The notes under the pieces were generated by a model. The model was not told the DNA's origin and ran no database searches. It saw only the letters and a program-made list of their open reading frames with translations. Below are positions 1 through 29,036 of a stretch of 64,000 nt of DNA, one piece after another. The position numbers and the translations under genes are program-made. Positions within the stretch are counted from its first letter, which is position 1, and each line of letters begins with the position of its first letter. The stretch is taken from assembly GCA_041661765.1 (NCBI GenBank), contig JBAZTV010000001.1, forward strand, positions 300,791-364,790, written 5' to 3'. Source of the DNA: Candidatus Shapirobacteria bacterium. Its GTDB lineage: Bacteria; Patescibacteriota; Microgenomatia; UBA12405.

Positions 1-2
1 TA

Positions 3-635
3 TTTATTGCTCTCCCTGTTAGTGCTTTGATTTTAGTGGAAAGAGTTTCGATTGTTAGAATTCTTTATGGATCTCAAGAATTTCCTTGGTCAGCTACTAT
101 TTTAACCTCCAGAATTTTAGCTTTTTTGATTCCAGGAATTGTCTGCCAAGCTGTAATCCAAATCTTAATTAGAGCATTTTATGCCCTTCATAATACTAAA
201 ATTCCTTTCAATGTTTCAGCTGTTTCTCTAATTATAAATATTACAACTAGTTTTTATTTTGTTAATTTTACCCAATTTGGCGTTATTGGTTTAGCTATAA
301 GTGCTTCTATCGGTAATTTGGTCCAACTTTTTGGTTTATTAATTATGTTTATTAAGGTTGTTGATGGTTTTAATTGGTCGAATACATTTAGTAAATTTTA
401 TAAAATATTAATCTCCTCTATTTTAATGGGAGTTGTTAGCTGGTTGTCAATAAAATTTTTAGATCTTTTCATTCTCGACACTACTCATTTCATTCCAGTC
501 TTAACTCTAATGGTAATCTCCTCAATTATTGGTTTAATTACGTACATATTTGCTGTTAATTTTCTAAGAATGGATGAGGTTAAAGATTACAAAAAATATT
601 ATTTCAAATTTAAGGATTTTATTTTCCACAAATAG
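3..635 (+). CDS. C-terminal portion of a polytopic membrane protein, MurJ/MviN-like flippase family (5' end outside window)
   Basis: Reading frame is open to the left window edge (track ORF 27..635 starts at an internal TTG); translation is TM-helix rich with MurJ-like C-terminal segment. Confidence 0.45.
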   Translation, partial: FIALPVSALILVERVSIVRILYGSQEFPWSATILTSRILAFLIPGIVCQAVIQILIRAFYALHNTKIPFNVSAVSLIINITTSFYFVNFTQFGVIGLAISASIGNLVQLFGLLIMFIKVVDGFNWSNTFSKFYKILISSILMGVVSWLSIKFLDLFILDTTHFIPVLTLMVISSIIGLITYIFAVNFLRMDEVKDYKKYYFKFKDFIFHK

Positions 636-652
636 TCATATATACTGAACGT

Positions 653-1231
653 ATGGCTATCAAGAAAGAACTGTCTCTTCTACCCGAATCTGAAAATCCA
701 AGGTCTTTTGGAGCCCGCTTTTTTAAATGGATTACTACTACCGGTAGGGTCACTATTATTTTAACTGAACTTATTGTTATTTCAGTCTTTATCTCTCGTT
801 TTTGGTTAGACCGTAAAAATTCAGATTTATCAGAAATCGTTCGTCAGAAGCAGGCAATTTTAGAAAGTGCAACTCCATTCGAAACAGAATTTACCAAGCT
901 ACAGGAAAGATTAGATTATATTAAAAGTTTTTATTCAAATCAGCCAGAATATGATAAGCAAATCAGCTCTTTGATTTCTAGTACACCCACTGACCTTTTT
1001 TACAACCAACTTTCTATTTCCATGGATGAGAAAACTACAACCACAGTCATCAATGCTTCTTTAACTGCTTACAAAGAAGAAAGTATTGTTTCTTTTATAA
1101 CCAATCTCACCCTAAATTCCGATATTAATCAAGTATATGTCACTAAAATTGAAAAAAAAGAAAAAGAAAATCAATATTTAATCTCAATCGTTTTATATTT
1201 TAATGCGAATAAAGCTAAAACTGAAATATGA
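653..1231 (+). CDS. hypothetical bitopic membrane protein, possibly PilN-like
   Basis: ATG start; short N-terminal cytoplasmic segment with LSLLPE motif resembling the PilN INLLP motif, single TM, then coiled-coil; tightly packed with next two genes. Confidence 0.4.
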   Translation: MAIKKELSLLPESENPRSFGARFFKWITTTGRVTIILTELIVISVFISRFWLDRKNSDLSEIVRQKQAILESATPFETEFTKLQERLDYIKSFYSNQPEYDKQISSLISSTPTDLFYNQLSISMDEKTTTTVINASLTAYKEESIVSFITNLTLNSDINQVYVTKIEKKEKENQYLISIVLYFNANKAKTEI

Positions 1232-1860
1232 TCTACACTAAAAACTGGTTTCAACTCCAACCTATGTATGATTTTATTAGGAAGCAAGCCGAAAATGAAA
1301 AAACTTTGAGATATTTAGAAATTGGAGGTACTTTTACCTTAATTACCATTTTTCTCTTTTTTGCCATCATGCCTACCATGACTACAATTTTTTCCCTCTT
1401 GGGTGAAATAAAATCAAAAGAAATTTTTATTGAAAAAGTTGATAATAAAATTAAGAATATTATTCAAGCTCAAAAAGTATATGCTCAAGTTCAGGAGAAA
1501 TACTCATTAGTGGAAGAAAGTTTTCCTTCTCAACCACATTATTATAATAGTGCTTCAAATTTAGCCACTATATTCAGAGACTCATCTTTAGATATAAGCA
1601 ACATAGGTTTTAATTTAACTGATAAAATTATTCAAGAGAAAAATAGTGATCAATTTTTCAAATCTTATCAAATCAATTTAATTGGTGAGGGGCAATATTC
1701 TGCCATCATTGAGATGATTAAAAAGATGTCCAATAATCGTCGCCTATCTAATACTTCAAATATTCAAATCAATCAAATAAAAACCGATATAAATAAAACA
1801 GGATCAAATAAAGTTGAGTTTATTCTTTCCAGTGATTTATTTTTTTTACCTGACAATTAA
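1228..1860 (+). CDS. hypothetical membrane protein (PilO-like architecture: TM + coiled coil)
   Basis: 4-nt start/stop overlap with upstream gene; single TM followed by coiled-coil rich domain. Confidence 0.4.
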   Translation: MIYTKNWFQLQPMYDFIRKQAENEKTLRYLEIGGTFTLITIFLFFAIMPTMTTIFSLLGEIKSKEIFIEKVDNKIKNIIQAQKVYAQVQEKYSLVEESFPSQPHYYNSASNLATIFRDSSLDISNIGFNLTDKIIQEKNSDQFFKSYQINLIGEGQYSAIIEMIKKMSNNRRLSNTSNIQINQIKTDINKTGSNKVEFILSSDLFFLPDN

Positions 1861-2186
1861 TGAAAAAAAATAAAATATCATTCTATTTTGTTTTCATCTC
1901 TTTTCTTACTCTTTTAACCATATTTTTTTCAATAGTTCAAAAAAGTTATTTTAGTTTTATAACGCCCCAAAAAACAATAGAGAATAATATTCTCTTGAAT
2001 AATTTTGACCCAAGTTTAGATTTAACTGTTATTTCTATAGTTGAATCTAAAAACAAAAATATTGACGAATCATTTGATTTCTCAATTATAAAATCAAATC
2101 AAAAATTAAATGATTTAGATTCAACACCAACAGCAACTTCAACACCAACAGCAACTTCAACATCCACAGTAAATTCAATACAATAA
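1860..2186 (+). CDS. small membrane-anchored hypothetical protein with Thr/Pro-rich tail
   Basis: ATGA overlap with upstream stop; N-terminal TM; C-terminal TPTATSTPTATS low-complexity. Confidence 0.35.
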   Translation: MKKNKISFYFVFISFLTLLTIFFSIVQKSYFSFITPQKTIENNILLNNFDPSLDLTVISIVESKNKNIDESFDFSIIKSNQKLNDLDSTPTATSTPTATSTSTVNSIQ

Positions 2187-3533
2187 ATGTTAAAAGAAAA
2201 AAAAATTCCAACAATTCTGGGTCTTATAATTCTAGTTAGCGGAGTTTTTGTCGGTGTCCTTTTAACCAATCAAAAAACCAGTTTTATCTCCAAGGCCAGT
2301 AGTAGTTGTAAGCCAAAAAACTCTCAAATAACCAATATCACTAATAGTGCTGTTTCTATTTCTTTTGTGACTGAATCTACATGCTTATCAACGCTTTCCA
2401 TAAACAATCAAATAATTGAGAATGCTGCTGTTGCTAGTGTTGATCCAAAAAGTAAAATTCATTATTTTGATGTTAATAATTTAAATGCTGCCACTGAATA
2501 TAATTTTTCTTTTATTGTCGATGGTACAACATACAAAGAGTCATTATATAAATTTGAAACAGCTCCAAATCCCAGTGGCTCAATTCCCTCTTCAAATTTA
2601 GCTTGGGGTCGTGTTTTTACACCAGAATTAAAAGCGGCCAATAAAGTCATTGTTTTTGTTAATATTCCTGGAGCTTCTCCTTTATCTGCACTAGTAACTT
2701 CATTAGGCAATTGGAATATTTCATTAGCCAATAGTTTCAATGAATCAAAAACAAATAGATTCACTCCCACAGCCAACACTCCAGAAGAAATTATTGTTAT
2801 TGACCAAAACAATCAAACCACTCAAATCACTGGTAACACTTCAAATAATGATCCAACTCCAGATATTATTTTAGGTCAAAATCAATTTTCATCATCCACT
2901 ATTGTCTACGACACTAAAACTGATACAGGTTCTTTGTCTTCAGTTGCACCAGTTTCAAATTCAAAAGAGTTAGATATTTTAAATCCAAAAAATAATGAAT
3001 CCATTTCTACAAAAAAACCAGATTTTTTTGGAACGGGCCCGATTGATTCCACTGTTAAAATAGAAGTTCACTCATCGACAGTTTATAATGGTGAGGTTAT
3101 AGTAAATAAAGACGGCTCCTGGAACTGGTCTCCTCCATCTGACTTAGAACCAGGAGAACACACGGTCACCGCCACAGTTATTATTAATGGCATTGAAAAA
3201 GTAATCACTAGAAATTTTACTGTCCTCGCCACCGACAGTAATCTTTCCTATTCGGCTTCACCGTCAGCTTCTACCTCTAATACTACCCAAACTTCTATTA
3301 CTCAAACACCAACATTAACCCCAACCCCAACCCCAACCCCAACTATTACACCCACTAAAACTCCAACTACTCCAATACCAACATTGAGTGTTATCCCGAT
3401 TGAAACTCAAATTACTGTGGTCAGTACCAGTTCTGGTATGCCCAAAACTGGTAATACGACTCCTACAATATTATTACTCTTAACAGCTTCTTCTTTTATT
3501 GCTTTCTCTTTTTTCTCATTCAAGAAAAAATAA
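2187..3533 (+). CDS. secreted surface protein with Ig/FN3-like domains and C-terminal sortase sorting signal (MPKTG + hydrophobic segment + KKK)
   Basis: N-terminal signal/TM; Thr/Pro-rich linker (TPTLTPTPTPTPTITPTKTPTTP); C-terminus MPKTGNTTPTILLLLTASSFIAFSFFSFKKK matches an LPXTG-type cell-wall sorting signal architecture. Confidence 0.55.
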   Translation: MLKEKKIPTILGLIILVSGVFVGVLLTNQKTSFISKASSSCKPKNSQITNITNSAVSISFVTESTCLSTLSINNQIIENAAVASVDPKSKIHYFDVNNLNAATEYNFSFIVDGTTYKESLYKFETAPNPSGSIPSSNLAWGRVFTPELKAANKVIVFVNIPGASPLSALVTSLGNWNISLANSFNESKTNRFTPTANTPEEIIVIDQNNQTTQITGNTSNNDPTPDIILGQNQFSSSTIVYDTKTDTGSLSSVAPVSNSKELDILNPKNNESISTKKPDFFGTGPIDSTVKIEVHSSTVYNGEVIVNKDGSWNWSPPSDLEPGEHTVTATVIINGIEKVITRNFTVLATDSNLSYSASPSASTSNTTQTSITQTPTLTPTPTPTPTITPTKTPTTPIPTLSVIPIETQITVVSTSSGMPKTGNTTPTILLLLTASSFIAFSFFSFKKK

Positions 3534-3554
3534 TAATGGTATCATATAATACTA

Positions 3555-4484
3555 ATGCTAGGAATAAAAAAAATAAATTCTATTTTTGAAGAACTTCGTC
3601 CTACTCAATGGATAAAAAATTTGGCTATTTTTTCAGCTATAATTTTAAATGGACAACTTTTTAATTCTCAGCTTTTTATTCCCAATTTTTTTGCTTTTAT
3701 AGCCTTTTGTTTTTTATCTTCATCCTCTTATATTATTAACGATCTTATTGATGTCAGTAAAGATCGGTTACATCCAGTCAAAAAAAATCGTCCAATTGCT
3801 CGTGGTGATGTTTCAGAATCAGCTGGCATTTTTATTGCGTTTTTTCTTCTTTTCTTTGGATTAGGGATAACGATTTTTATTAATTATGGTTTTTTCGTTT
3901 TTTCTCTCATCTTTATTTTACTTCAATATTCCTATTCTTTATTCCTAAAAAAGAAAGCCATTGTCGATATTATGGGAATAGCTTTATTTTTTATAATTCG
4001 TGCTTTTGCTGGTGAAATTGTTACAGGTTATCATCTTCCGATTTGGATTATGCTAACCGTTATTTTTTTATCCCTATTTATTGCCAGCGGAAAACGCCGT
4101 AGTGAATTAGTTAATAGTGGTACAAAAACCAGGTCGGCTCTTAGTGGTTATAGTAAAAATCTTCTAAATTTTTATACCACTATGTTTGCTGTCTGTACTT
4201 TAGTTTGTTATGCTTTATTTACTTTTTTTGAAGAATCAGTCAGTTTTTCTGGATCAGGGTTTTTACACCAGCTTCTCTTAGATTTTTTCCCCAACGCTTT
4301 AAATCGAAAATGGTATATGATCACTCTTTTACCCGTAATTTTTGGAATTATGCGTTATGGTCAAATAATTTTTGAGATGCAAGAAGGTGAGAGGCCTGAA
4401 AGAATAGTCGCCACAGATATACCTATTTTACTTTCAGTTCTAATTTGGGGGCTGATGATAATTGGTATCATCTATGCAATCTAA
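3555..4484 (+). CDS. UbiA-family prenyltransferase, decaprenyl-phosphate phosphoribosyltransferase (DPPR synthase)-like
   Basis: RPTQWIKN motif near N-terminus and NDLIDVSKDRLHPVKKNRPIARG (NDxxDxxxD) Asp-rich motif, multiple TM helices; typical of UbiA-superfamily DPPR synthases. Confidence 0.65.
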   Translation: MLGIKKINSIFEELRPTQWIKNLAIFSAIILNGQLFNSQLFIPNFFAFIAFCFLSSSSYIINDLIDVSKDRLHPVKKNRPIARGDVSESAGIFIAFFLLFFGLGITIFINYGFFVFSLIFILLQYSYSLFLKKKAIVDIMGIALFFIIRAFAGEIVTGYHLPIWIMLTVIFLSLFIASGKRRSELVNSGTKTRSALSGYSKNLLNFYTTMFAVCTLVCYALFTFFEESVSFSGSGFLHQLLLDFFPNALNRKWYMITLLPVIFGIMRYGQIIFEMQEGERPERIVATDIPILLSVLIWGLMIIGIIYAI

Positions 4485-6066
4485 CAAAATCAAAAGAATT
4501 TTAATTCCGTTTTTTTTAATATTTCTTACTATTTTTACTCGCTTCTATTCTCTTAACTGGGGCAACGGCTACTTTTTTAATCCGGATGAAAATAATATGG
4601 CTATTGCTGTTTCCAAAATGACTTTATCAGATCTTAATCCACATTTTTTTGCCTATGGACAATTTCCTCTTTTTTTGACCTTTTTTACTACTCCAAATCA
4701 TGATTTTTCTACCATTATTTTAACTTTACGTTTTTGGTCAGCTGTGTTTTCCTCCTTGTCAATTTTATTTTTTTATTTGATCGCCAAAAATATTTTTAAG
4801 TCCCAAAAAATAAGTTATATTTTTGCACTTCTCTTAATTTTTACCCCAGGTCTAATTCAGTCAGCTCATTTTGGAACTACCGAGTCTCTTCTTATTTTTA
4901 TTTTTTCTGCCAATATTTTTTTATCCTTAAAATATTATCAAACCGAAAAAAAACTATTTTTTTTATTTTCTATTTTAGTCAGTGCAGTCGGCCTTGCTTC
5001 TAAAATAACTGCTGTTTTTTTTATTCTGCCATTTTATCTTTGTCTCTTTTTAATTTTTCTAAAAAATAAGGGCCTCCCTGCTTGCCCGCCCACTGGCTGG
5101 GTCAAGGGAGGTGTCCGAAAGACGGAGGGTTTTAATCTCATTTTTACCGCCGTTATATTTACTCTCCTGACTTCATTTCTATCTCTTCTTTTTTCTCCTT
5201 TCAACATCATCAAATTTTCCGATTTTAAGTCAACTATGAATTATGAAACATCAGTAGCTATTGGCACAAATAAAGTTTTTTATACTCGTCAATTTGAAAA
5301 TTCTCTACCATATATTTTTCAATTAAAAAATATTTTTCCATATGCTAATGGAATTTTTATTTTTATTTTTTCTTTTTTCGGTTTTTTATTTTTTCTAAAA
5401 AATAAAATAAAAAAAGAATTTCTTTTAATTCTAATTCCGTCAATAATTTATTTTATTTACGCTGGCCAGCTTTTTGTTAAATGGTCTCGTTTTATGTCCC
5501 CTGTTTTTTTTATAGCTCCGTTTTTCTGTCTTTTTTTAATCGAAAAAATTAAAAACAAATTTTTAATTTTAATTTTATTAATAACAATGATTAGTCCTGG
5601 CTTTTATTTTTTTCAAAAATATTTCTCAATCGACACTCGAATTATTGCCTCAAATTGGATTGAATCAAATATACCTTCAGATTCATTCATCTTATCTGAA
5701 TCCGGTAATGTTGTTAATTTACCTTTATTTTACATTGATCTTAAAGTTAACAATTTTGATTTTTATAATCAGGATAATATAAAAAATTTATCAACAGAGA
5801 TAAATAAAAATGACTATATAATTATTCCTTCGCGCCGAGTTTTTAAAAATAATTTTCCCCAAACTGAAAAATATTATCAAAATTTATTTTCAGGTAATTT
5901 AGGTTTTAAAGAAATCAAAGTAATTAATAATCAAAGAGATTTGTTTTTAAATTCAGAAAATGCTGAAGAAACTTGGTCTGTTTTTGATTCTCCAACCATT
6001 AGAATATATAAAAAAGTTACCAATTTTAAATTAAATGACTATCAAAAAATACTTATCGATAATTAA
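4462..6066 (+). CDS. GT-C fold membrane glycosyltransferase (GT39/ArnT/PMT-like), paralog 1
   Basis: About 12 TM helices; first extracytoplasmic loop carries a DE motif (NPDENN) as in PMT/ArnT-type enzymes; paralogous to 6642..8402; contains an in-frame GC-rich insertion at 5071..5136. Confidence 0.55.
   Translation: MVSSMQSNKIKRILIPFFLIFLTIFTRFYSLNWGNGYFFNPDENNMAIAVSKMTLSDLNPHFFAYGQFPLFLTFFTTPNHDFSTIILTLRFWSAVFSSLSILFFYLIAKNIFKSQKISYIFALLLIFTPGLIQSAHFGTTESLLIFIFSANIFLSLKYYQTEKKLFFLFSILVSAVGLASKITAVFFILPFYLCLFLIFLKNKGLPACPPTGWVKGGVRKTEGFNLIFTAVIFTLLTSFLSLLFSPFNIIKFSDFKSTMNYETSVAIGTNKVFYTRQFENSLPYIFQLKNIFPYANGIFIFIFSFFGFLFFLKNKIKKEFLLILIPSIIYFIYAGQLFVKWSRFMSPVFFIAPFFCLFLIEKIKNKFLILILLITMISPGFYFFQKYFSIDTRIIASNWIESNIPSDSFILSESGNVVNLPLFYIDLKVNNFDFYNQDNIKNLSTEINKNDYIIIPSRRVFKNNFPQTEKYYQNLFSGNLGFKEIKVINNQRDLFLNSENAEETWSVFDSPTIRIYKKVTNFKLNDYQKILIDN
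5071..5136. repeat. GC-rich short element (family B), copy 1, in-frame within GT-C glycosyltransferase gene
   Basis: GGCCTCCCTGCTTGCCCGCCCACTGGCTGGGTCAAGGGAGGTGTCCGAAAGACGGAGGGTTTTAAT; internal inverted repeat CCTCCCT...AGGGAGG; shares TCAAGGGAGG-TG(T/C)CCGAA...GG(A/T)GGGTTT core with 61228..61270. Confidence 0.55.
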
Positions 6067-6664
6067 TCTTTATCCATTTTTTTGGCCAAGGTTATATGTA
6101 TTTTTAAGGTCAATTATTTTACCTGTTTCCAAAATAGAATCTCTTTTACCAAAAAAAGGTCTAATTCTAGACGTCGGTTGTGGTTATGGGTATACATCAA
6201 CTATTTTTGCTCTTAAAAATAAAAATAGAAAAATTATTGGATCAGAGATAAATAAAAAAAGAGTATTAATTGCACAAAAAGTTTCTACTTCAATTTCTAA
6301 TTTATCTTTTAAAACATCAGATTTAATCGATAAAGACAAAACGTTATTCGATGCTATTGTTGCTATTGACTTGCTTCACCACATTAATCTAAATCAAAAA
6401 GGAATTTTATTAAAAGATTCATATTCAAAATTAAAACCAGGTGGTTTTTTAATTATAAAAGATATTAATACTAAACCTTTATTAAAATATTTATGGAATT
6501 ATCTACATGATTTAATTATGACAAAATTTTCAAAACTTTATTTTTTATCGTCAGTTAAAACCAAAAATCTTTTAATCAAAAATAATTTTAAAATTATTAA
6601 ACAAGGAAAACTTTTTAGTTTTCTTTACCCTCATATTTATTATGTTTGCCAAAAAAAATCTTAA
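6035..6664 (+). CDS. class I SAM-dependent methyltransferase
   Basis: LDVGCGYGYTS glycine-rich SAM-binding motif I; Rossmann-like pattern. Confidence 0.6.
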   Translation: MTIKKYLSIINLYPFFWPRLYVFLRSIILPVSKIESLLPKKGLILDVGCGYGYTSTIFALKNKNRKIIGSEINKKRVLIAQKVSTSISNLSFKTSDLIDKDKTLFDAIVAIDLLHHINLNQKGILLKDSYSKLKPGGFLIIKDINTKPLLKYLWNYLHDLIMTKFSKLYFLSSVKTKNLLIKNNFKIIKQGKLFSFLYPHIYYVCQKKS

Positions 6665-8402
6665 CAATCAATTAATAATAGTTTTTTCAATTTTTTTTAT
6701 TTCCCTTAGTATTCGTTTTTTTGGTTTAAATTGGGATCAAAATCAACATCTTCATCCAGACGAAAGATTTCTAACAATGTTGGTTTCTACTATCCAATTT
6801 CCTTCCTCTGTCGGTCAATATTTCGACACCAAAAATTCTCCATTGAATCCATTTAATTATCAGGATTTTCATTTTTTTGTTTATGGCACCTTTCCTTTAT
6901 TTTTAGTCAAAAGCATGGGTTTTTTATTTAATGTCTCCAGTTATGAAAATATTCATTTTATTGGACGTATTTTATCTGCTATTTTTGATTCTTTAAATAT
7001 TTTTAGCCTTTATTTTTTAGCCAAATTAATTTTCCCAAAAAATAAAAAAAATCTCTTATTTTTACCTGGTCTTTTTTATTGTTTTACTGTCTTACCAATT
7101 CAACTATCCCATTTTTTTGCCGTTGATACTTTTCTGTCTTTTTTTATTTTATTAACTTTTGTATTAATGTCTTATTGGTTAAAAACCAATAATAATTTTT
7201 TATTATTATTTGCATCAATTACTTTTGGACTAAGTATGAGTTGTAAAATTTCTGCCATTCTTTTAGCTCCAATTATATTTCTATTTTTTCTTTATCATTT
7301 TCGACAAAAAAAGATTATTTTTTTGATTAAAGCTGTATTTTTTGTTTTATTTTCTTTAATTATTTTTCGTATTTTTCAACCATATAGCTTTATTGGAATT
7401 TTTAAAATAAATCCAGATTTTATAAATAGTCTTAATTATTTAAAATCAATTTTACTAAATAAAGATGTTTTTTATCCACCAGAGATTCAATGGTTAACTA
7501 AAACACCTGTTTTATTTCCACTTCAAAATATTATTTTATTTGGCTTAGGGTTGCCAATTAGTATTACTTTGTTGGTTTCTGTCAAAAATATTTTTTCAAT
7601 CAAATTTAAAAGATTTTTTTTATCACACGATAACTTTATAATTTTTTTAGCTTCTGTCTGGGTTATTTTTGTATTAATTCAACAAGGACTACAATTTACC
7701 AGTACTATGCGTTATTTTCTCCCTATTTATCCATTTATATGTTTATTAGCTGTTTTCTTTAATTTATTTTCTAAAAAACATCATCAACTTTTTATTTTAA
7801 CTTTTATTTTTCATTTAATTTATTGCATTTTATTTCTTTCGATTTATACTAAGCCCCACACCCGAGTTCAAGCTTCTGATTGGATTTATAAAAATATTCC
7901 CAAATCCTCAACTATTGCCAATGAATATTGGGATGATGCCCTGCCTTTATCTTTAGATTATTCATCTTTGAGCTTTTATATAAATAATAATTTACCTCTT
8001 TACGATCCAGATACCGAAATTAAATGGCAAAAAATTAATTCTATTTTAAATAACACAGACTACATTTTTTTAACCTCTAATCGACTTTGGTCGTCAATCA
8101 CTCAAATTCCAAGACGTTATCCAATAACCACTGAATATTATCAAGAACTCTTTGATGGAAATTCCCAGTTTAAGAAAATAATGGAATTTAATTCTTATCC
8201 AGGTATTTCATTGCCTATTTTAAATAAATGTATTTATTTTGGTCCAACAAACTTTCCTTATTTAAAAAATAAAAATCATTGGGTTGATATTGATTCTAGT
8301 TGTAAATATCCAGGTATTTACTTTCGAGACGATATATCTGAAGAGGCTTTTTCTGTCTATGACCACCCAAAAGTTATTTTATTTAAAAAAATGATAAACT
8401 AA
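6642..8402 (+). CDS. GT-C fold membrane glycosyltransferase (GT39/ArnT/PMT-like), paralog 2
   Basis: Polytopic; conserved N-terminal RFFGLNWD...HPDERF (DE motif) shared with 4462..6066. Confidence 0.55.
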   Translation: MFAKKNLNNQLIIVFSIFFISLSIRFFGLNWDQNQHLHPDERFLTMLVSTIQFPSSVGQYFDTKNSPLNPFNYQDFHFFVYGTFPLFLVKSMGFLFNVSSYENIHFIGRILSAIFDSLNIFSLYFLAKLIFPKNKKNLLFLPGLFYCFTVLPIQLSHFFAVDTFLSFFILLTFVLMSYWLKTNNNFLLLFASITFGLSMSCKISAILLAPIIFLFFLYHFRQKKIIFLIKAVFFVLFSLIIFRIFQPYSFIGIFKINPDFINSLNYLKSILLNKDVFYPPEIQWLTKTPVLFPLQNIILFGLGLPISITLLVSVKNIFSIKFKRFFLSHDNFIIFLASVWVIFVLIQQGLQFTSTMRYFLPIYPFICLLAVFFNLFSKKHHQLFILTFIFHLIYCILFLSIYTKPHTRVQASDWIYKNIPKSSTIANEYWDDALPLSLDYSSLSFYINNNLPLYDPDTEIKWQKINSILNNTDYIFLTSNRLWSSITQIPRRYPITTEYYQELFDGNSQFKKIMEFNSYPGISLPILNKCIYFGPTNFPYLKNKNHWVDIDSSCKYPGIYFRDDISEEAFSVYDHPKVILFKKMIN

Positions 8403-8405
8403 TAA

Positions 8406-8981
8406 GTGCCTTTAACCCTAAAAAAAATTCTTTTTTGGCAACCAAAAATAGACTTCCTCGCTTTTTTTGAACATGGTTTTTGGAGAGAAACCACTTTAGT
8501 TTTTTTAAACTATTTCATTTGGTTTTTTTTCTTTTTTATTTCTTTTAAATTAATTTGTTTTGATATTAATTTTTTTGGACGCCTTTTTATTGCCACTCTT
8601 TTTGCTGAAATTATTGAAAGATTTCTTAAACGAAAACGTATTTGGCTAAGACCAATGTTTAGTCGCCACCAGATTGCCCCTAAAGGTTTAGTTAATAATT
8701 GGTATTACAGTGGTTCTTTTCCTTCTGGTCATACAATGAAGGCCACTTTTTTTCTTCTCTTTATAATTTTCACCGGTGTTCTACATTTACCTATTTTTTT
8801 ATCAATCGTTATCCCACTACTAACATTTAGGGTTTTAGTTGGGTTTCATTATCCAATCGATATTATTGGGGGGTTGATTTTTGGAGTTATTCTTTGGTTT
8901 TTAACCAGAAATTTAGTCTTTCCCATTGATTTTAATAATTTTATTCAAACTATTTTTAATTTTGTCTTTTTTATTAAATAA
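8406..8981 (+). CDS. PAP2-family phosphatase (phosphatidic acid phosphatase type 2 / polyprenyl-phosphate phosphatase-like)
   Basis: SGSFPSGHT motif (PAP2 motif C2 PSGH) plus a later HYPxD-like segment; membrane protein; GTG start per ORF track. Confidence 0.55.
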   Translation: MPLTLKKILFWQPKIDFLAFFEHGFWRETTLVFLNYFIWFFFFFISFKLICFDINFFGRLFIATLFAEIIERFLKRKRIWLRPMFSRHQIAPKGLVNNWYYSGSFPSGHTMKATFFLLFIIFTGVLHLPIFLSIVIPLLTFRVLVGFHYPIDIIGGLIFGVILWFLTRNLVFPIDFNNFIQTIFNFVFFIK

Positions 8982-8987
8982 ATAATT

Positions 8988-11078
8988 ATGTTTTCAGATT
9001 TTACTTTTATTATTTCTTGGTGGTTTTTAATTTTTACATTAGGTCTAGCTTGTATACCTCTAACTTTTACTTTATTTAAAAATTTTTGGGATAAAGGTTA
9101 TATTTTTTCCAAAACTATTTGCATTATCGTTTTAACTTATTTAATTTTTATTGGTGGTGTTTTTAAAATTTTAACTTTCACCAGTTTAAATTTATTTTTA
9201 ATCATTCTTTTAATTTTATTTTTTAATTTCCTATTTCTTAAAAGAAAAAACAATTTTTCTGTTTTTTTAAAAACAATTAAGGAAAATTATAAAACTTTCA
9301 TTTTTGAAGAAATTATTTTTCTTTTAATTTTAGTTGTTTGGTCGTTTATTCGTGGTTTTATGCCAGATATTGAAGGTTTAGAAAAATATATGGATTGGGG
9401 TTTTATTAATTCTGCCTTAAGATCAGAGTTTTTACCGCCTCAAGATATGTGGTTTTCTGGTGAAATTATAAATTATTATTATTTTGGTCATCTTATTTTT
9501 GCTGTTTTAACTAAATTAAGCACTATTAGTTCGGCCATTACTTATAATTTATCTATTGCCACCGTCTGTGCCTTAACTTTTACATCTTCTTTTTCTATCG
9601 CTTCTAATTTAGTCTTCCTCACTCTCAAAAAAATCGATTTCAAAAAAATTATCATCGCTGGTCTAATTTCTGCTCTACTTTTAACTTTTGGTGGCAATCT
9701 TCATACCGTTTATAAAATTACCCAAATAAATATTACCGATAATGGCAAATTAACCCTAACAAAAGAAGCAATTACTAAAGCTGTCGACAAATACTGGTAT
9801 CCCGACGCCACTCGTTTTATTGGTTACGATCCAGATGTTAAAGACAAAACTATTCACGAGTTTCCGATTTATAGTTTTGTTGTGGCTGATCTTCACGGTC
9901 ATATGAACGACATTCCTGTTATTTTATTTTTTATGGCCTTTTTATTAGCCTCGAGTTTTTATTCATCCATACTAATTAACAATCTTTTAGTTATTATTTC
10001 TGGTTTTATTCTGTCGATTGCCTATATGACCAATGCTTGGGATTTCGCTATCTATGGTCTTCTTTTTGCTATTTTCACTTTCTTTTTAAATTTAAAAAAT
10101 GATTCAAAAACAGCCATTAAAAAAACTTTTATTAATGGAATTTTAACCATTATTTGTTGGTTTATTTTTTCCCTACCATTTTCTTTAAATTTTACCCCTA
10201 TGGGTAATGGTATTAAAATCTCGGATAACCACAGTCTTTTTTACCAACTATTTATCTTATATGGTGGCTTTTGGTTAATCATTTTACCTTTATTACTTTT
10301 ATTTTCAATAAAAAAAATTAAAAGAAAAAAAATCAATTTACAAACCTCTGATATTTTTGTTTTAGCTATTATTATCACTGCTACTCTTTTAATAATTATT
10401 CCCGAAATAATTTATTTAAAAGATATTTATATATATGAGCATCGACGTGCCAACACTATGTTCAAATTAACCTATCAGGCTTTTATTATGTATTCTTTAG
10501 TTTCTGGTTATGTTTTTTATAAAATTCGGATTCTATTAAAACCTAAATGGCTTAATTCTTTATACGGCCTACTATTTGCCATAATTTTTTCTATACAATT
10601 AATTTACCCCTATTTTACCATCAGATCATTTTACGGTTCTCTTAAAAATTATCAAGGATTATGGGGATTAAATTATTTAAAAAATGATTACCCTGATAAT
10701 TTTAATGCCATTAATTGGATTAATAAAAATATTTCTAATCAATCAGTAATGCTCGAAGCTGTTGGTGATAGCTATACTACTTTTAATCAAGTTTCATCCG
10801 CCACTGGGCTACCGACTGTTCAAGGTTGGATTGTGCATGAATGGCTTTGGCGCGGTGGCTACGATAAGCCTAAATTGCGTCAAGACAATGTCGAGGCTAT
10901 TTATGAAAGTGAAGATATTGGTCGATTGAAACAGTTAATTCAAAAATATAACATTAAATATATTTTTATTGGCGATAAGGAATATGAAAAATATCCAGGC
11001 CTAAATGAAGATAATTTCAAAGAAATTGGTGGGCAAGTTATTTTTCAGTCTGGTAAAACTAAAATTTACCAACTATAG
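8988..11078 (+). CDS. DUF2298 / chlor_Arch_YYY-domain large membrane protein (putative glycosyltransferase-like)
   Basis: 696 aa, many TM helices, diagnostic EIINYYYFGH (YYY motif) segment. Confidence 0.55.
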   Translation: MFSDFTFIISWWFLIFTLGLACIPLTFTLFKNFWDKGYIFSKTICIIVLTYLIFIGGVFKILTFTSLNLFLIILLILFFNFLFLKRKNNFSVFLKTIKENYKTFIFEEIIFLLILVVWSFIRGFMPDIEGLEKYMDWGFINSALRSEFLPPQDMWFSGEIINYYYFGHLIFAVLTKLSTISSAITYNLSIATVCALTFTSSFSIASNLVFLTLKKIDFKKIIIAGLISALLLTFGGNLHTVYKITQINITDNGKLTLTKEAITKAVDKYWYPDATRFIGYDPDVKDKTIHEFPIYSFVVADLHGHMNDIPVILFFMAFLLASSFYSSILINNLLVIISGFILSIAYMTNAWDFAIYGLLFAIFTFFLNLKNDSKTAIKKTFINGILTIICWFIFSLPFSLNFTPMGNGIKISDNHSLFYQLFILYGGFWLIILPLLLLFSIKKIKRKKINLQTSDIFVLAIIITATLLIIIPEIIYLKDIYIYEHRRANTMFKLTYQAFIMYSLVSGYVFYKIRILLKPKWLNSLYGLLFAIIFSIQLIYPYFTIRSFYGSLKNYQGLWGLNYLKNDYPDNFNAINWINKNISNQSVMLEAVGDSYTTFNQVSSATGLPTVQGWIVHEWLWRGGYDKPKLRQDNVEAIYESEDIGRLKQLIQKYNIKYIFIGDKEYEKYPGLNEDNFKEIGGQVIFQSGKTKIYQL

Positions 11079-11090
11079 TTAATCTTACCC

Positions 11091-13022
11091 ATGGAAGATA
11101 TTTTAGAAGGTTTAAACCCAAATCAAAAAGAAGCAGTTATCCATATTGGCTCTCCTTTGCTTTTATTAGCTGGAGCTGGTTCTGGTAAAACTCGAGTTTT
11201 AACTCACCGTGTAGCCTATTTTATTCAAAAAAAAATTGCCAAACCATCAGAAATTTTACTTCTCACTTTCACCAATAAGGCCGCCGAGGAGATGAGAAAC
11301 CGTACTAATAGATTAATTGTAGAGACGCCCCGACGGGGCGTCTCTACAACTGATAAAAATAATAAATCTTTATTAAAACAAAATATTTTTGCTGGAACTT
11401 TTCATTCTTTTTGCTGTCGAGTTTTACGTGCCGATGGCAATAATATTGGCATTCCCCCTAAATTTGTTATTTACGACTCAAATGATCAGGAAAATTTAAT
11501 CAAAAATATTCTTCACGAACTTGGCTTAACTACTAAAGAATTTAAACCTTCCAGCGTCTTATATTATATCGAAGCCGCAAAAAATTCTTTTCAAACTCCA
11601 AAAGACATGATTGCCCAAAGTCATGGTTTTTGGCAAGATTATGCCAGTAAAATTTATTCTCGTTACCAACAAAAACTATTTGAATTTCATGCTCTCGATT
11701 TTAACGATCTTTTATTTAAAACCGTTGAATTATTTTTACAATATCCAGATGTTTTGGCTAAATATCAAGATATTTATAAATTTATTATGGTTGATGAATA
11801 TCAAGACACTAATCAAATTCAATATCTTCTAACCAAACTTTTAGCCAAAAAATACAACCAAATTACTGTTGTTGGCGATGCTTCGCAGGCAATTTATGGT
11901 TGGCGCGGTGCCGATTATCGCAATCTTGTTAGTTTTACTACCGATTTCAAAAATACCAAAGTTATTAATCTTGAAGAAAACTATCGTTCCACTCAAATTA
12001 TTCTCGATGCTGCCAATACAGTCATTTCTAAAAATAATTCTCATCCAATTTTAAAATTATTCACTCAAAAAAAATCAGAAGATAAAATAAAAATTTTTGA
12101 AGCCGAATCAGAGGTTGCCGAGGCTGACTTTACTGCTTCCAAAATTAAATTTATTAATGATAATTTAAAAATTCCTTTGCGAAATATTGCCGTTCTTTAC
12201 CGGATGAATGCTCAATCGCGTGTTTTAGAAGAAGCCTTTTTGCGTCAGAGCATCCCTTATGTTTTATTAGGTGGGATTCGTTTTTATGAGCGTGCCGAAA
12301 TCAAAGATATTTTATCGATGCTTCGTTTTGCCAGTAATCCTGCAGATCATATTTCCGAAGAGAGAATCGAAAAAGCATTAGGCAAACGCAAAAAAGCAGT
12401 TCTAATTAATCATCTTGAAGATATGGATTTAGAAAACCTCACTTCACTTCAAATACTAGAATCATTGGTTGTAAATTCTGGCTATCTTAATAAATTTGAT
12501 GCTAAAGATGAGGAAGATCAGAAAAGAATTGAAAATATTAAAGAATTAAAATCAGTTGCTGCCGCACATCCTCAATTAAGTGCTTTTTTAGAAAATATCA
12601 CTTTAGTTCAACAAGAATATTCTCTTCAAGAAAAAAATAAGAAAAAAGAAAAACGCGACGGAGTTAAACTAATGACTCTTCACAGTGCCAAAGGTTTGGA
12701 GTTTGAAGTTGTTTTTATGGTTGGTTTTGAAGAGGGAATTTTACCTCACTCTCGCTGCCTAATTAACGAATCAGAAATCGAAGAAGAACGTCGTCTTTGT
12801 TATGTTGGTATTACTCGTGCGAAAGATTATCTTTATATTTCATATGCCAATAAACGTCTATTTTTCGGTAAAAGTAGCCTCAATGAACCGAGTCGATTTT
12901 TAGCCGATATTCCTCAAGAATTAGTTGAATTTGAGGAAAGTTTAGAAACCGTTCATGATTATCGCCATCCCAGAAAATCCAAAGACGATGATGACATCAT
13001 TTATGATCCCGATATATACTAA
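11091..13022 (+). CDS. UvrD/PcrA-family ATP-dependent DNA helicase
   Basis: Walker A AGAGSGKTRVL, DEYQDTN (motif II), later helicase motifs (GDASQAIYGWRGA, TLHSAKGLEF, GITRAKD); contains in-frame REP hairpin insertion at 11317..11349. Confidence 0.85.
   Translation: MEDILEGLNPNQKEAVIHIGSPLLLLAGAGSGKTRVLTHRVAYFIQKKIAKPSEILLLTFTNKAAEEMRNRTNRLIVETPRRGVSTTDKNNKSLLKQNIFAGTFHSFCCRVLRADGNNIGIPPKFVIYDSNDQENLIKNILHELGLTTKEFKPSSVLYYIEAAKNSFQTPKDMIAQSHGFWQDYASKIYSRYQQKLFEFHALDFNDLLFKTVELFLQYPDVLAKYQDIYKFIMVDEYQDTNQIQYLLTKLLAKKYNQITVVGDASQAIYGWRGADYRNLVSFTTDFKNTKVINLEENYRSTQIILDAANTVISKNNSHPILKLFTQKKSEDKIKIFEAESEVAEADFTASKIKFINDNLKIPLRNIAVLYRMNAQSRVLEEAFLRQSIPYVLLGGIRFYERAEIKDILSMLRFASNPADHISEERIEKALGKRKKAVLINHLEDMDLENLTSLQILESLVVNSGYLNKFDAKDEEDQKRIENIKELKSVAAAHPQLSAFLENITLVQQEYSLQEKNKKKEKRDGVKLMTLHSAKGLEFEVVFMVGFEEGILPHSRCLINESEIEEERRLCYVGITRAKDYLYISYANKRLFFGKSSLNEPSRFLADIPQELVEFEESLETVHDYRHPRKSKDDDDIIYDPDIY
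11317..11349. repeat. REP hairpin inserted in-frame in UvrD/PcrA helicase gene: TTGTAGAGACGCC-CCGACGG-GGCGTCTCTACAA
   Basis: 13-bp perfect stem, 7-nt loop; GC-rich island in AT-rich CDS; translated as ...VETPRRGVSTTDK... Confidence 0.7.
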
Positions 13023-13031
13023 ATTATCAAC

Positions 13032-14075
13032 ATGACTACTAAAATTCTTACCATTAAAGACAAAGAAAAATACGACTCTTTAATTATTCATCCAGTTCAA
13101 ACCTGGGAGTGGGGAGATTTTCAAATTTCCCAAGGACATACAGTTTATCGCCTCGGCGTTTTTGATGATAAAGAAAAAATAATTTCTGCCTATTCTGTCA
13201 GTTTTCATAAAATTCCTAAAACCAAATTTTCTATTGGTACGATTCTTCGTGGTCCAGAAATCGACGATGAAGCCATCAAAGAAATCACCGAAATTGCCAA
13301 AAAAGAAAACGCCATTTTTGTTAAGTTCGAACCAAATATTATTCATAAAAAATTTGATAATTTTAACAACAGCATTCCTATTTTCAAAAAACCAAATTTT
13401 CAAAATCTCAAAAAATCACCCAAAGTTGCTTTTTACCCCTTCACTTATTTAATCGACTTAACTAAAAGCGAAACTGAATTATTAGAATCAATGCATTCTA
13501 AGACTCGTTACAATATCAGAGTTGCTAATCGTTATAGTGTTGAAGTTGAAGAACGAACCGATGATAAAGGTTTTGAAATTTATTTAAAACTTCTCCTCGC
13601 TACCACCAAACGTCAGGGTTTTTATTTACACACCGAAAAATATCATCGCGATTTATGGAAAAAGTTAAAAGACACTGGTATGATTCACATCATATTGGCC
13701 TCTTATCAAAATGAAGTTCTTTCCGCCTTTATGATTTTCAAATTAAAAGACCAATTATTTTATCCATACGGTGCCTCTCTCCATACTAATCGTCAAGTCA
13801 TGGCTCAAAATCTTTTAATGTGGGAAGTAATTAAACTTGGTAAAAAATTAAAGTGTAAAACTTTTGATATGTGGGGTTGTCTTGGTCCACACGCCAAAGA
13901 AACTGAAAATGGTTTCGGTTTTCATCGTTTTAAGCAGGGCTATGGCGGTCAATTAGTCGAATATGTTGGAACTTATGATTTAATCATCAATCCAATTTTT
14001 TATAAAATTTACAATTCTGCTGATAAAATTCGCTGGAAAATTCTCCGTCTTAAGGCAAAAATTCTAAGAAAATAA
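13032..14075 (+). CDS. FemAB-family peptidoglycan interpeptide-bridge aminoacyltransferase-like
   Basis: Two-lobed GNAT-like FemX/FemAB pattern (SKTRYNIR, ...ASYQNEVLSAFMIF, YPYGAS). Confidence 0.55.
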   Translation: MTTKILTIKDKEKYDSLIIHPVQTWEWGDFQISQGHTVYRLGVFDDKEKIISAYSVSFHKIPKTKFSIGTILRGPEIDDEAIKEITEIAKKENAIFVKFEPNIIHKKFDNFNNSIPIFKKPNFQNLKKSPKVAFYPFTYLIDLTKSETELLESMHSKTRYNIRVANRYSVEVEERTDDKGFEIYLKLLLATTKRQGFYLHTEKYHRDLWKKLKDTGMIHIILASYQNEVLSAFMIFKLKDQLFYPYGASLHTNRQVMAQNLLMWEVIKLGKKLKCKTFDMWGCLGPHAKETENGFGFHRFKQGYGGQLVEYVGTYDLIINPIFYKIYNSADKIRWKILRLKAKILRK

Positions 14076-14082
14076 AAAAAAC

Positions 14083-14121
14083 GGGAAGCTTTTAAATCTT
14101 TTCAGATTCAAAAAACTTCCC
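14083..14121. terminator. long hairpin between convergent FemAB-like (+) and VanW-like (-) genes, A8 upstream / T8 on minus strand
   Basis: GGGAAGC-TTTTAAATCT-TTTC-AGATTCAAAA-AACTTCCC. Confidence 0.5.
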
Positions 14122-14141
14122 ATTAAGGAAAATCGGATTAA

Positions 14142-14828
14142 CTAATTATTGGGATATATCAGTTTATAAAAACTGACATGCAGGACACAATTTTTATCAA
14201 CATTACATTTGATGCGAATATCGTGGTCTTTATTATTTTTAAACTTATTATCGATGTTGCCATCCATATAAACTGTAGCATCAATAAGGTGTTGGTCCGG
14301 GTTCGTTGCAAAATAATAAGGCGTGTATTCATGTGGAGTTATTTCAATTTGTTTTAATCCAACTCTTTTAACTGCGGTGGCTAATCCAACTACAAGACGA
14401 CATACACCAGAAGAAACAACTTCAGTTATTTCTTCTTTACCATTTATTGTAATCGGCATACTACCATAAACAAAACCATTAGCCTCCGTTCTTGGTGCCA
14501 CTACTGTGTTGTAAGAAAAAGTTTCTCCTGATTTTAGTACATACTTATCAAGGATTTCCGCTGCTCGACGAGCATTAACTGTTCCTGGTTCATCTCTTAA
14601 TTTGATTTGAACTTCAGGGGCCATCAATACCTCTGTCGGGATTCCATTTCTATTTATTTGAGGTTCAATATTAACTTCTACTACTTTAGTCTCAGTCGTA
14701 ATCGGTACAGGTGTTACTGTTAATTTTATTGTTGTCGGTTCTTCTAATACTTTTAACACTACTATTATTGCAACAATAGTTACCACTATTACCATTACAG
14801 TCATTAAAAACCCCAATATTTTTTTCAT
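14142..14828 (-). CDS. VanW-like domain protein (membrane anchored)
   Basis: N-terminal TM; SSGVCRLVVGLATAVKRVGLKQIEITPHEYTPYY resembles VanW core GGG(V/I)CQVSTTLYNA... Confidence 0.4.
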   Translation of the reverse strand: MKKILGFLMTVMVIVVTIVAIIVVLKVLEEPTTIKLTVTPVPITTETKVVEVNIEPQINRNGIPTEVLMAPEVQIKLRDEPGTVNARRAAEILDKYVLKSGETFSYNTVVAPRTEANGFVYGSMPITINGKEEITEVVSSGVCRLVVGLATAVKRVGLKQIEITPHEYTPYYFATNPDQHLIDATVYMDGNIDNKFKNNKDHDIRIKCNVDKNCVLHVSFYKLIYPNN

Positions 14829-14849
14829 TTTACAAACCCCTTCTTTTTT

Positions 14850-27097: not shown

Positions 27098-27594
27098 TTT
27101 TTCAATCTCCCCTAGCCCCTCTTTGACAAGAGGGGAACTAAATCATCAATTTTCTTTTTTACGGAATCAATATTATCTATCACTTCTTCATTTGTAAATC
27201 TTATTGTTGTAACCCCAATTTGTTTCAAAAATTTATCCCTCAATTCATCCGTTCCTTTCTTTTTAATATGCGATTCACCATCAATCTCAATTGCCAATGA
27301 TAATTTTGAACAATAAAAATCAACAATAAATCGATCAATTGGTTTTTGTCTCAGAAATCTATAGCCGGTTTTATCTCTCGACAAAATTTTATCCCAAATT
27401 ATTTTTTCAGCATCAGTCGGTTTCGTTCTATTTTTCTGCGACATAAAAGTCAAACTATTTCGATATCGAACACAATTTCTTTTAGAATTTATCGCTTCAT
27501 AATCAACCGATTTTTTCATTAAAAAATTATATATTCCCCCGTCTTGTCAAAGAAGGGGGCAGGGGGAAGATTGAATAAAAAGGGGAGATTGAAA
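27098..27594. mobile_element. candidate miniature selfish element: DUF559 gene bounded by 14-bp perfect terminal inverted repeats (TTTCAATCTCCCCT / AGGGGAGATTGAAA) and sub-terminal GC-rich hairpins
   Basis: Left end 27100..27113 and right end 27581..27594 are exact reverse complements; hairpins CCCCTCTT-TGAC-AAGAGGGG (27116..27135) and CCCCCGTCTT-GTCA-AAGAAGGGGG (27536..27559) are near-copies of each other in inverted orientation. Confidence 0.4.
27112..27519 (-). CDS. DUF559 endonuclease-like protein (Vsr/restriction-endonuclease-like fold)
   Basis: IWDKILSRDKTGYRFLRQKPIDRFIVDFYCSKLSLAIEIDGESH...GVTTIRFTNEEV matches the DUF559 pattern; C-terminal 9 codons are encoded by the left terminal hairpin. 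Confidence 0.65.
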   Translation of the reverse strand: MKKSVDYEAINSKRNCVRYRNSLTFMSQKNRTKPTDAEKIIWDKILSRDKTGYRFLRQKPIDRFIVDFYCSKLSLAIEIDGESHIKKKGTDELRDKFLKQIGVTTIRFTNEEVIDNIDSVKKKIDDLVPLLSKRG

Positions 27595-29033: not shown

Positions 29034-29036
29034 CCT

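Follow-up and report, generated by a model that had tools for sequence, protein, structure and literature searches.

The logic of lipid-linked pentofuranose pathways was published in 2024 as a widespread one (PMC11127046), and three described systems come closest to the locus reported here. The three-component system of Citrobacter youngae O1/O2 consists of ORF15, a polyprenyl-phosphate 5-phosphoribosyltransferase joined to a phosphoribose phosphatase (PPPRS-PRP), the MATE flippase ORF14 and the GT-C glycosyltransferase ORF12 of family GT136, with ORF13 as an SDR epimerase (Kelly et al. 2024, PMC11127046). The mycobacterial decaprenyl-phospho-arabinose (DPA) pathway has Rv3806c, Rv3807c, DprE1/DprE2 and the Emb/Aft enzymes, and in the pilin D-arabinofuranosylation system of Pseudomonas aeruginosa PA7/Pa5196 (PsPA7_6245-6249 and the GT-C enzyme TfpW) the donor of an O-glycosylating GT-C comes from a PPPRS together with a PAP2-type phosphatase, and the target is a surface protein. 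In this study we analysed a window of 64,000 nucleotides (GC content ~31%) from a Candidatus Shapirobacteria bacterium (contig JBAZTV010000001.1, positions 300,791 to 364,790), which belongs to the Patescibacteria or candidate phyla radiation (CPR), and describe six genes on its + strand. They encode a UbiA-superfamily protein resembling PPPRS or decaprenyl-phosphoribose (DPPR) synthases (3555-4484, 309 aa), a PMT_2/GT39-like protein called GT-C1 (4462-6066, 534 aa, with a probable start at the ATG at 4474 chosen by gene callers), a putative accessory class-I S-adenosylmethionine (SAM)-dependent methyltransferase (6035-6664, 209 aa), the PMT_2-like paralogue GT-C2 in a variable cassette (6642-8402, 586 aa), a PAP2-family integral-membrane phosphatase (8406-8981, 191 aa) and a DUF2298/Chlor_Arch_YYY protein with a predicted GT-C fold (8988-11078, 696 aa). 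With a probability of roughly 0.6, we read this operon as a pathway for a polyprenyl-phospho-pentofuranose derived from 5-phosphoribosyl pyrophosphate (PRPP) that feeds extracytoplasmic GT-C enzymes.

As in Citrobacter, a UbiA-type PPPRS is clustered here with a phosphatase function, for which the substrate of the PAP2 protein is a predicted one, and with GT-C proteins, and strains differ by an SDR epimerase, which the window lacks and 12 relatives possess. The phosphatase is a fused HAD domain in Citrobacter but a separate PAP2 protein here, the MATE flippase gene has no counterpart in our cluster, and the one GT136 enzyme contrasts with three GT-C proteins that are of the PMT_2 type or DUF2298 by profile. 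The host differs as well, being a Gram-positive-like CPR bacterium without lipopolysaccharide. With the DPA pathway the cluster shares the synthase subfamily, a separate PAP2-family phosphatase gene (a likeness at the level of superfamily and motif) and the presence of several GT-C enzymes, among which the DUF2298 model resembles AftA; in contrast, DprE1/DprE2 are found in neither the cluster nor the window, and the Emb/Aft sequence families are not represented. The likeness to the P. aeruginosa system extends to the genes just upstream, which are in conserved synteny and encode weakly PilN/PilO-like proteins and Ser/Thr/Pro-rich surface proteins, whereas DprE1/E2 genes, a TPR-containing TfpW homologue and a pilin gene beside the GT-Cs are all missing; the pilus link to that system draws on weak Pfam matches (E 0.002-0.04).

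The UbiA protein scored 83.9 bits against Pfam UbiA (PF01040) and matched three NCBIfam DPPR-synthase models with E values of 4.7e-58 (NF008978), 2.5e-52 and 6.4e-45, whereas the best other named prenyltransferase model (heme O synthase, UbiA, MenA/MqnP, chlorophyll synthase or GGGP-type) gave 1e-12 or worse. Among PDB sequences, the cryo-EM structure of Mycobacterium tuberculosis Rv3806c (8j8j) was matched with E 4e-34 and the next UbiA structure with 2e-6. As the initial annotation had proposed, the protein groups with DPPR synthases and not with the menaquinone or heme-O enzymes.

The ligand residues of Rv3806c (PMC10994848) were mapped onto the UbiA protein through its HMMER alignment to 8j8j. 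The Mg2+ ligands N73 and D77, in the Mg2+/diphosphate-binding motif NDxxDxxxD, correspond to N62 and D66, the pyrophosphate cluster R22, K87, R90, K143 and Y138 to R15, K76, R79, K132 and Y127, the ribose contact Q135 to Q124, and the 5-phosphate ligands K28, Y70 and Y157 to K21, Y59 and F146. Altogether 11 of the 12 PRPP/Mg ligands are kept when F146 is counted as equivalent to Y157, and the sole loss is K208, replaced by S194; Phe also stands in place of Y157 in some mycobacteria (PMC10994848). Ten of the 11 kept residues are invariant among 14 homologues, including N62, D66 and all five of the pyrophosphate cluster, and so are W19, I20 and N22 around K21. The phosphoribose-binding residues K28, Y70, Q135 and Y157 of Rv3806c are not conserved in ordinary UbiA prenyltransferases (PMC10994848); because the corresponding positions are kept here, the UbiA protein carries the features specific to the subfamily. 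Judged from sequence, it is a member of the phosphoribosyltransferase branch, and a PRPP-dependent activity is predicted. PyrE and PyrF are encoded in the window, indicating that PRPP is a metabolite of the organism.

All six ORFs of the initial annotation were recovered, with family assignments well beyond chance, and every motif it quoted was found in the translations: the UbiA protein has RPTQWIKN and NDLIDVSKDR...RPIARG, GT-C1 has NPDENN, GT-C2 has HPDERF and the PAP2 protein has PSGH. The six are laid out like an operon, each ORF overlapping the next by 23-32 nt or separated from it by 3-6 nt, and the methyltransferase ORF overlaps the GT-C1 gene on one side and the GT-C2 gene on the other. 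A promoter/terminator scan of 1-14200 showed no difference from shuffled sequence and defined no operon boundary. We then scanned related loci with one genome per species and obtained 80, nearly all of which carry a Shapirobacteria or Patescibacteria label. Across ~80 Shapirobacteria genomes the operon is conserved in the order MurJ, PilN/PilO-like proteins, a 108-aa protein, a Big_13 protein, UbiA, GT-C1, a variable stretch, PAP2, DUF2298, UvrD and FemX. GT-C1 directly follows UbiA, adjacent or overlapping, in 65 of 67 informative loci, and PAP2 lies directly upstream of DUF2298 in 51 of 55. As the cluster is the rule in Shapirobacteria, other Patescibacteria possess related UbiA-GT-C clusters and relatives of the proteins already bear such names in public annotation, the earlier remark that such a pathway is not a standard feature of small-genome bacteria was overstated. 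Many records in the scan are titled "uncultured Gammaproteobacteria bacterium", and one "Candidatus Methanoperedens"; these are mislabelled, as 65-92% protein identity and full synteny identify them as Shapirobacteria.

Not all parts of the operon have diverged together. Measured against the window proteins in 50 loci, the identity values for UbiA, GT-C1 and DUF2298 rise and fall together (r ~0.9), indicating vertical descent, and those for GT-C2 are uncorrelated with them (r = -0.07), phylogenetic non-independence being ignored in these values as well as in the partial r of 0.68 with which PAP2 identity co-varies with GT-C2. In the closest relative (L004), GT-C2 is only 32% identical. The stretch from GT-C2 to PAP2 is a variable island that holds glycan-tailoring genes for GT4 (32 loci), SDR epimerases (12 loci), FkbM methyltransferases and extra PMT_2 GT-Cs, and also genes for DUF362 and a small HAD-like protein. 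These comparisons indicate that the GT-C2-to-PAP2 segment, PAP2 included, is an exchanged cassette, and its exchange probably diversifies the surface glycan between close strains. The SAM-dependent methyltransferase matched Methyltransf_23, _12, _31, _25 and _11 of Pfam (E 3e-13 to 2e-9) and occupies the same position in only six other loci (L008, L009, L029, L055, L057 and L060), the remaining related loci having different methyltransferases of the FkbM type or none. Two loci, L010 and L064, are reduced to a minimal core of UbiA, PAP2 and DUF2298.

The UbiA family comprised 1,027 clusters of 50% identity at E <= 1e-30, and its nearest members outside Shapirobacteria belong to other Patescibacteria. 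There, DPPRS-like UbiA proteins of 41-56% identity have other neighbourhoods, lying beside PMT_2/MptA-type GT-Cs, a polyprenyl-phosphate N-acetylhexosamine-1-phosphate (HexNAc-1-P) transferase or polyprenyl-diphosphate synthases. The gene order is GT2-like, PMT_2, a 117-aa protein, Glycos_transf_4 and UbiA in L087 (UbiA 47%), and Glycos_transf_4 and UbiA in L088 (45%), together with an MptA-type GT-C, PMT_2, GT2-GtrA, two epimerases and UDP-glucose dehydrogenase; in L089 (52%) an FAD amine-oxidase-like gene precedes UbiA, PMT and PMT_2, and in L079 (56%) an FAD oxidase overlaps UbiA, followed by two GT-Cs and then trans- and cis-polyprenyl-diphosphate synthases. The recurrence of UbiA with GT-C genes in such differing neighbourhoods supports a functional coupling of UbiA, GT-C and polyprenyl carrier chemistry. 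Proteins of 115-121 aa beside UbiA in distant Patescibacteria, possibly GtrA/SMR-like flippases, had no Pfam match. As a separate observation, the FAD-dependent amine-oxidase/phytoene-desaturase-like gene stands directly upstream of UbiA in three divergent lineages, represented by L079 (8661-9965, overlapping UbiA by 4 nt), L089 (8703-9932) and L084 (7636-8901); its product may be an analogue of the DprE1 oxidase without being homologous to it, or may modify polyprenol, and the window is without it.

GT-C1 matched Pfam PMT_2 with 41.6 bits (cut-off 26.1) and PMT with 34.6 bits, GT-C2 matched PMT_2 with 33.5 bits against the same cut-off, and the two are paralogues with 27% identity across their full length (E 1e-35). 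Sequence searches of the PDB with GT-C1, GT-C2 and the DUF2298 protein gave no significant match. An AlphaFold2 model of GT-C1 was built from 54 sequences (pLDDT 86, pTM 0.88), and the best 39 of its Foldseek matches in the PDB were all GT-C enzymes, including STT3/PglB (E 3e-8), ALG9, ArnT, Pmt4 (TM 0.52/0.55), DPY19 and EmbA/B/C. The motif P41-D42-E43-N44-N45, located between TM1 and the first loop helix, is invariant in the 54 homologues of GT-C1, and H38-P-D40-E41-R42 of GT-C2 is kept in at least 95% of 53 orthologues. The proposal that these proteins are GT-C enzymes with an acidic motif in the first external loop thus agrees with the models of GT-C1 and DUF2298, whose folds were predicted with good confidence, and with the conservation of the motif in both PMT_2 proteins; for GT-C2, a GT-C fold is predicted from its paralogy to GT-C1.

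A GC-rich palindromic insert was also seen in frame within the GT-C1 gene (5061-5126, RNA fold -28.5 kcal/mol). The loop specified by this insert, GLPACPPTGWVKGGVRKTEG, has low pLDDT and is missing from GT-C2. Another insert of this kind, with a perfect 15-bp stem (-30.1 kcal/mol), lies in frame within the UvrD/PcrA helicase gene at 11311-11360, and both resemble the in-frame palindromic mini-elements of the Rickettsia RPE type in a host genome of 31% GC.

The DUF2298 protein scored 317.5 bits against PF10060 (cut-off 27.8) and 483.4 bits against TIGR03662 (cut-off 300). Its AlphaFold2 model, built from 47 sequences, had a pLDDT of 83.4 and a pTM of 0.89, and all 10 of its PDB matches with E <= 1e-3 were GT-C enzymes, among them DPY19 (E 5e-7), AftA (E 5.5e-5, TM 0.45/0.51), AglB and STT3; its C-terminal domain resembles the globular domain of AglB. 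The invariant residues include D35 in the first loop, N162-Y-Y-Y-F-G-H168 and D301-L-H-G-H305. The suggestion that this protein is a further GT-C-like candidate is therefore consistent with the predicted fold. Our literature search found nothing functional on DUF2298. Some orthologues (P0128, P0133-P0135, P0158 and P0193) have an extra C-terminal LysM domain, as does the 780-aa DUF2298 protein of L011; the LysM domains suggest a proximity of these homologues to peptidoglycan.

A further likeness is to the TIGR03662/TIGR03663 pair of Chloroflexi and Archaea, as the DUF2298 protein is here encoded together with PMT-like proteins carrying the DE dipeptide. The co-occurrence of the two families in these groups is presumably as their family descriptions have it, and we know of no UbiA link for the archaeal pair. 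GT-C1 matched TIGR03663, an Agl23-type PMT-like family, weakly (E 2e-5, 23.7 bits, cut-off 126) and is not a member. Flippase activity, the translocation of lipid-linked sugars, has been reported for Haloarcula Agl23, the namesake of TIGR03663, and by analogy one of the GT-C paralogues here might act as a flippase.

Pfam scans of all window ORFs of at least 120 aa detected neither a DprE1-like protein (FAD_binding_4) nor a DprE2-like or other SDR protein (adh_short, Epimerase), in line with the earlier statement that the locus has no DprE1/DprE2-type epimerase. The SDR epimerase of the 12 related loci is an NAD-dependent protein of 338-351 aa (PF01370, E 7e-39), encoded on the same strand between GT-C2 and PAP2, and the closest relative, whose UbiA protein is 93% identical, is one of the 12. 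In C. youngae, whether the lipid-linked donor is xylofuranose or ribofuranose depends on the presence or absence of just such an SDR epimerase (PMC11127046). The initial annotation had favoured ribose over arabinose for want of an epimerase, and this matches the Citrobacter O1/O2 logic and the occurrence of the in-cluster epimerase in relatives. With no epimerase in the cluster or window, the lipid-linked donor of this strain is probably ribofuranose, and by the same analogy the relatives with the epimerase probably make another pentofuranose.

From these observations a pathway can be proposed. The UbiA protein would move 5-phosphoribose from PRPP to polyprenyl phosphate at the cytoplasmic face, as its family and ligand residues predict, and a phosphatase, for which the in-cluster PAP2 protein is the candidate, would strip the 5-phosphate to leave polyprenyl-phosphate-ribofuranose. 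Epimerisation would not occur in this strain, so that the donor is probably ribofuranose as in the Citrobacter analogy. More speculatively, the donor may reach the outer face through a GT-C/Agl23-like protein or through MurJ, encoded 3 kb upstream. There GT-C1, GT-C2 and the DUF2298 protein would pass the sugar or sugars to an extracytoplasmic acceptor, a candidate being a cell-wall glycopolymer or Ser/Thr-rich surface proteins; the SAM methyltransferase would modify the product in this strain, and the exchangeable GT-C2-to-PAP2 cassette would diversify the surface glycan between strains. As to the acceptor, the polyprenyl-phosphate HexNAc-1-P transferase of distant clusters suggests a wall-polymer primer; together with the LysM homologues and the upstream surface proteins it is a hint, and none of the three is decisive.

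Several points weigh against this pathway. The NCBIfam scores of the UbiA protein lie below the equivalog cut-offs, being 196.7 bits against 207 for NF008978 and 178 against 234 for NF008977, models that were mainly trained on actinobacterial or proteobacterial proteins; since the former score is narrowly under its cut-off, strict automated naming is borderline, which agrees with the mixed names of relatives ("DPPR synthase" for some and "UbiA family" for others at NCBI, and "4-hydroxybenzoate polyprenyltransferase" for some elsewhere). The region from MurJ to FemX is wholly syntenic within Shapirobacteria, and the conservation of the operon is partly due to common descent. The best-known activity of GT-Cs of the PMT_2/GT39 type is the transfer of hexose or Ara4N, and the modelled fold of GT-C1 says nothing on donor specificity. 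Profile searches found no MATE, SMR or GtrA flippase among the six cluster proteins; the nearest MOP-superfamily gene, ending at 635, is that of MurJ, presumably the lipid II flippase. An epimerase could lie outside the 64-kb window. Finally, hydropathy and positive-inside analysis of the PAP2 protein gave an ambiguous membrane orientation, the catalytic loop being intrinsically rich in Lys and Arg, and its best family matches leave room for a role in which it may recycle carrier lipid instead.

Another explanation concerns the role of the PAP2 protein. This protein matched Pfam PAP2 (40.6 bits) and PAP2_3 (35.5 bits), PDB sequence searches returned generic acid or lipid phosphatases only, and the motifs K75x6R82P83, P106-S-G-H109 and R142x5H148x3D152 are kept in at least 95% of 53 orthologues. 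The annotated phosphatase is therefore present with PSGH and all three catalytic motifs intact, while its equation with the mycobacterial 5-phosphatase draws on gene context, the best NCBIfam matches being undecaprenyl-diphosphate phosphatases (E 2e-6 and 2e-5, far under the cut-offs). It is conceivable, if rather unlikely, that the protein is a polyprenyl-diphosphate phosphatase that recycles the carrier lipid at the outer face; DUF2298, acting like an oligosaccharyltransferase, would then transfer a glycan en bloc from a polyprenyl-diphosphate donor and another enzyme would remove the 5-phosphate. These NCBIfam matches speak for it, as do the resemblance of DUF2298 to AglB/STT3, C-terminal domain included, and the coupling of PAP2 to DUF2298 (a 6-nt gap, and adjacency in the 51 of 55 loci) and not to UbiA. 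However, the DPPR 5-phosphatase of M. tuberculosis and P. aeruginosa is a separate enzyme of the PAP2 type, not a HAD-family phosphoribose phosphatase, and is encoded beside the synthase. A generic recycling enzyme would not be expected to co-vary with the exchanged GT-C2 cassette as PAP2 does, and the loci with only UbiA, PAP2 and DUF2298 fit a trio of synthase, phosphatase and transferase. By analogy with the two known enzymes, we consider DPPR 5-phosphatase a reasonable assignment for the PAP2 protein; the recycling explanation touches this one component and is compatible with the rest of the proposed pathway.

The small HAD-like gene of six relatives also bears on this question and agrees with the recycling explanation, as all three PAP2-less loci have it and three other loci carry it together with PAP2. 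It encodes a protein of ~180 aa with a DxDG motif (in L071, L081 and L083 among others; 16125-16667 on the - strand in L083), and its distribution is suggestive of a non-orthologous replacement of the PAP2 phosphatase. As it matched only HAD acid-phosphatase profiles, and weakly (E 0.002-0.008), we did not call it a phosphoribose phosphatase.

A second alternative accepts that the UbiA protein makes polyprenyl-phosphate-(5-phospho)-ribose and takes the PMT_2 GT-Cs for ordinary protein O-mannosyl- or hexosyl-transferases, which would use a polyprenyl-phosphate-hexose from a GT2 synthase encoded elsewhere and leave the pentose donor to DUF2298 only, or to nothing in the cluster. We think this improbable. 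The PMT/PMT_2 matches fit it, NCBI names relatives "glycosyltransferase family 39", and the best TM-score of the GT-C1 model was obtained with the O-mannosyltransferase Pmt4. Just upstream are genes for Ser/Thr/Pro-rich surface proteins, the PMT_2 genes are absent from two loci that have UbiA-PAP2-DUF2298, and the GT2-GtrA of the distant locus L088 is a polyprenyl-phosphate-sugar synthase beside GT-Cs. Nevertheless, no GT2 polyprenyl-phosphate-hexose synthase was found in the cluster or the 64-kb window. Moreover, GT-C1 overlaps UbiA in the window, is its neighbour in nearly all loci and diverges in step with it (r 0.91), and the adjacency of UbiA and PMT_2 recurs in distant lineages whose neighbourhoods are otherwise different. 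That the UbiA protein is an ordinary prenyltransferase for quinone, heme O or ether lipid with coincidental glycosyltransferase neighbours is very improbable. In favour of it are the membership of the UbiA superfamily, the 4-hydroxybenzoate label of some relatives and a best NCBIfam score that narrowly misses the equivalog cut-off. Against it, the scores of all non-DPPRS UbiA families were poorer by 45 orders of magnitude or more, the residues with which Rv3806c specifically binds phosphoribose are kept, and the UbiA gene is translationally coupled to a GT-C gene in dozens of genomes.

Upstream of the operon (653-3533) are four conserved genes that are syntenic with it in nearly all relatives. 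They encode a weakly PilN-like protein (E 0.036), a weakly PilO-like protein (E 0.002), the 108-aa protein, which is a membrane protein with a Ser/Thr/Pro-rich tail, and the Big_13 protein (2187-3533, 448 aa), in which a Thr/Pro-rich linker is combined with a sortase signal of the MPKTG type. These proteins may be targets of glycosylation or take part in pilus assembly. A TfpW-type pilin-glycosylation reading based on the PilN/PilO-like and Big_13 genes was not adopted beyond a mere possibility, as the Pfam matches are weak and the co-location may be inherited synteny.

Other features of the window were noted. On the - strand at 14142-16775, a gene for a VanW-domain protein adjoins one for a protein of 641 aa, which joins three cell-wall-binding CWB2 repeats, of a kind typical of Clostridia surface proteins, to a Big_4 and an M14 carboxypeptidase domain. 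Both genes are without counterpart in the 80 related loci and may be a strain-specific acquisition; for this reason the CWB2 protein (14850-16775) was not taken to indicate a wall polymer. At 28017-30233, a defence nuclease of the Shedu type (SduA_C, E 1e-21) is encoded beside RmuC and is preceded by a DUF559 endonuclease-like gene (27112-27519, - strand), so that the region looks like a small defence island. At 53760-56662, the gene for a 728-aa protein with no Pfam match lies directly upstream of a sortase gene and overlaps it, probably forming a sortase substrate-sortase pair.

To our knowledge, experiments have revealed next to nothing about the envelopes of CPR/Patescibacteria, whose surfaces mediate attachment to host cells. 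The 2024 study of lipid-linked pentofuranoses does not mention CPR (Kelly et al. 2024, PMC11127046), and our literature search found no paper that connects DPPR synthase with CPR bacteria; relatives of these proteins already appear in public annotation as DPPR synthase, GT39 and DUF2298. The pathway logic is not new, and what our analysis adds is a predicted GT-C fold for DUF2298, a minimal core of UbiA, PAP2 and DUF2298, and a tailoring cassette that recombines. As a speculative extension, which we hold to be doubtful, DUF2298 may be a GT-C family that has so far been overlooked and that serves as core transferase or ligase for a pentofuranose-containing wall polymer or protein glycan made from polyprenyl-phosphate-ribofuranose in Shapirobacteria and perhaps other Patescibacteria, with UbiA-PAP2-DUF2298 as the minimal module and the cassette of GT-C2, methyltransferase, epimerase and GT4 giving strain-specific glycotypes. 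If such surface glycotypes do exist, they would matter for the way in which these episymbionts attach to hosts or evade phages. The enzymes can be assayed by the methods published for Citrobacter and mycobacteria. DUF2298, a large family of unknown function, gains a structural class (GT-C) and a pathway context, and the conserved operon points to a chemically unusual surface component, ribofuranose or its epimer, that can be searched for by glycomics.

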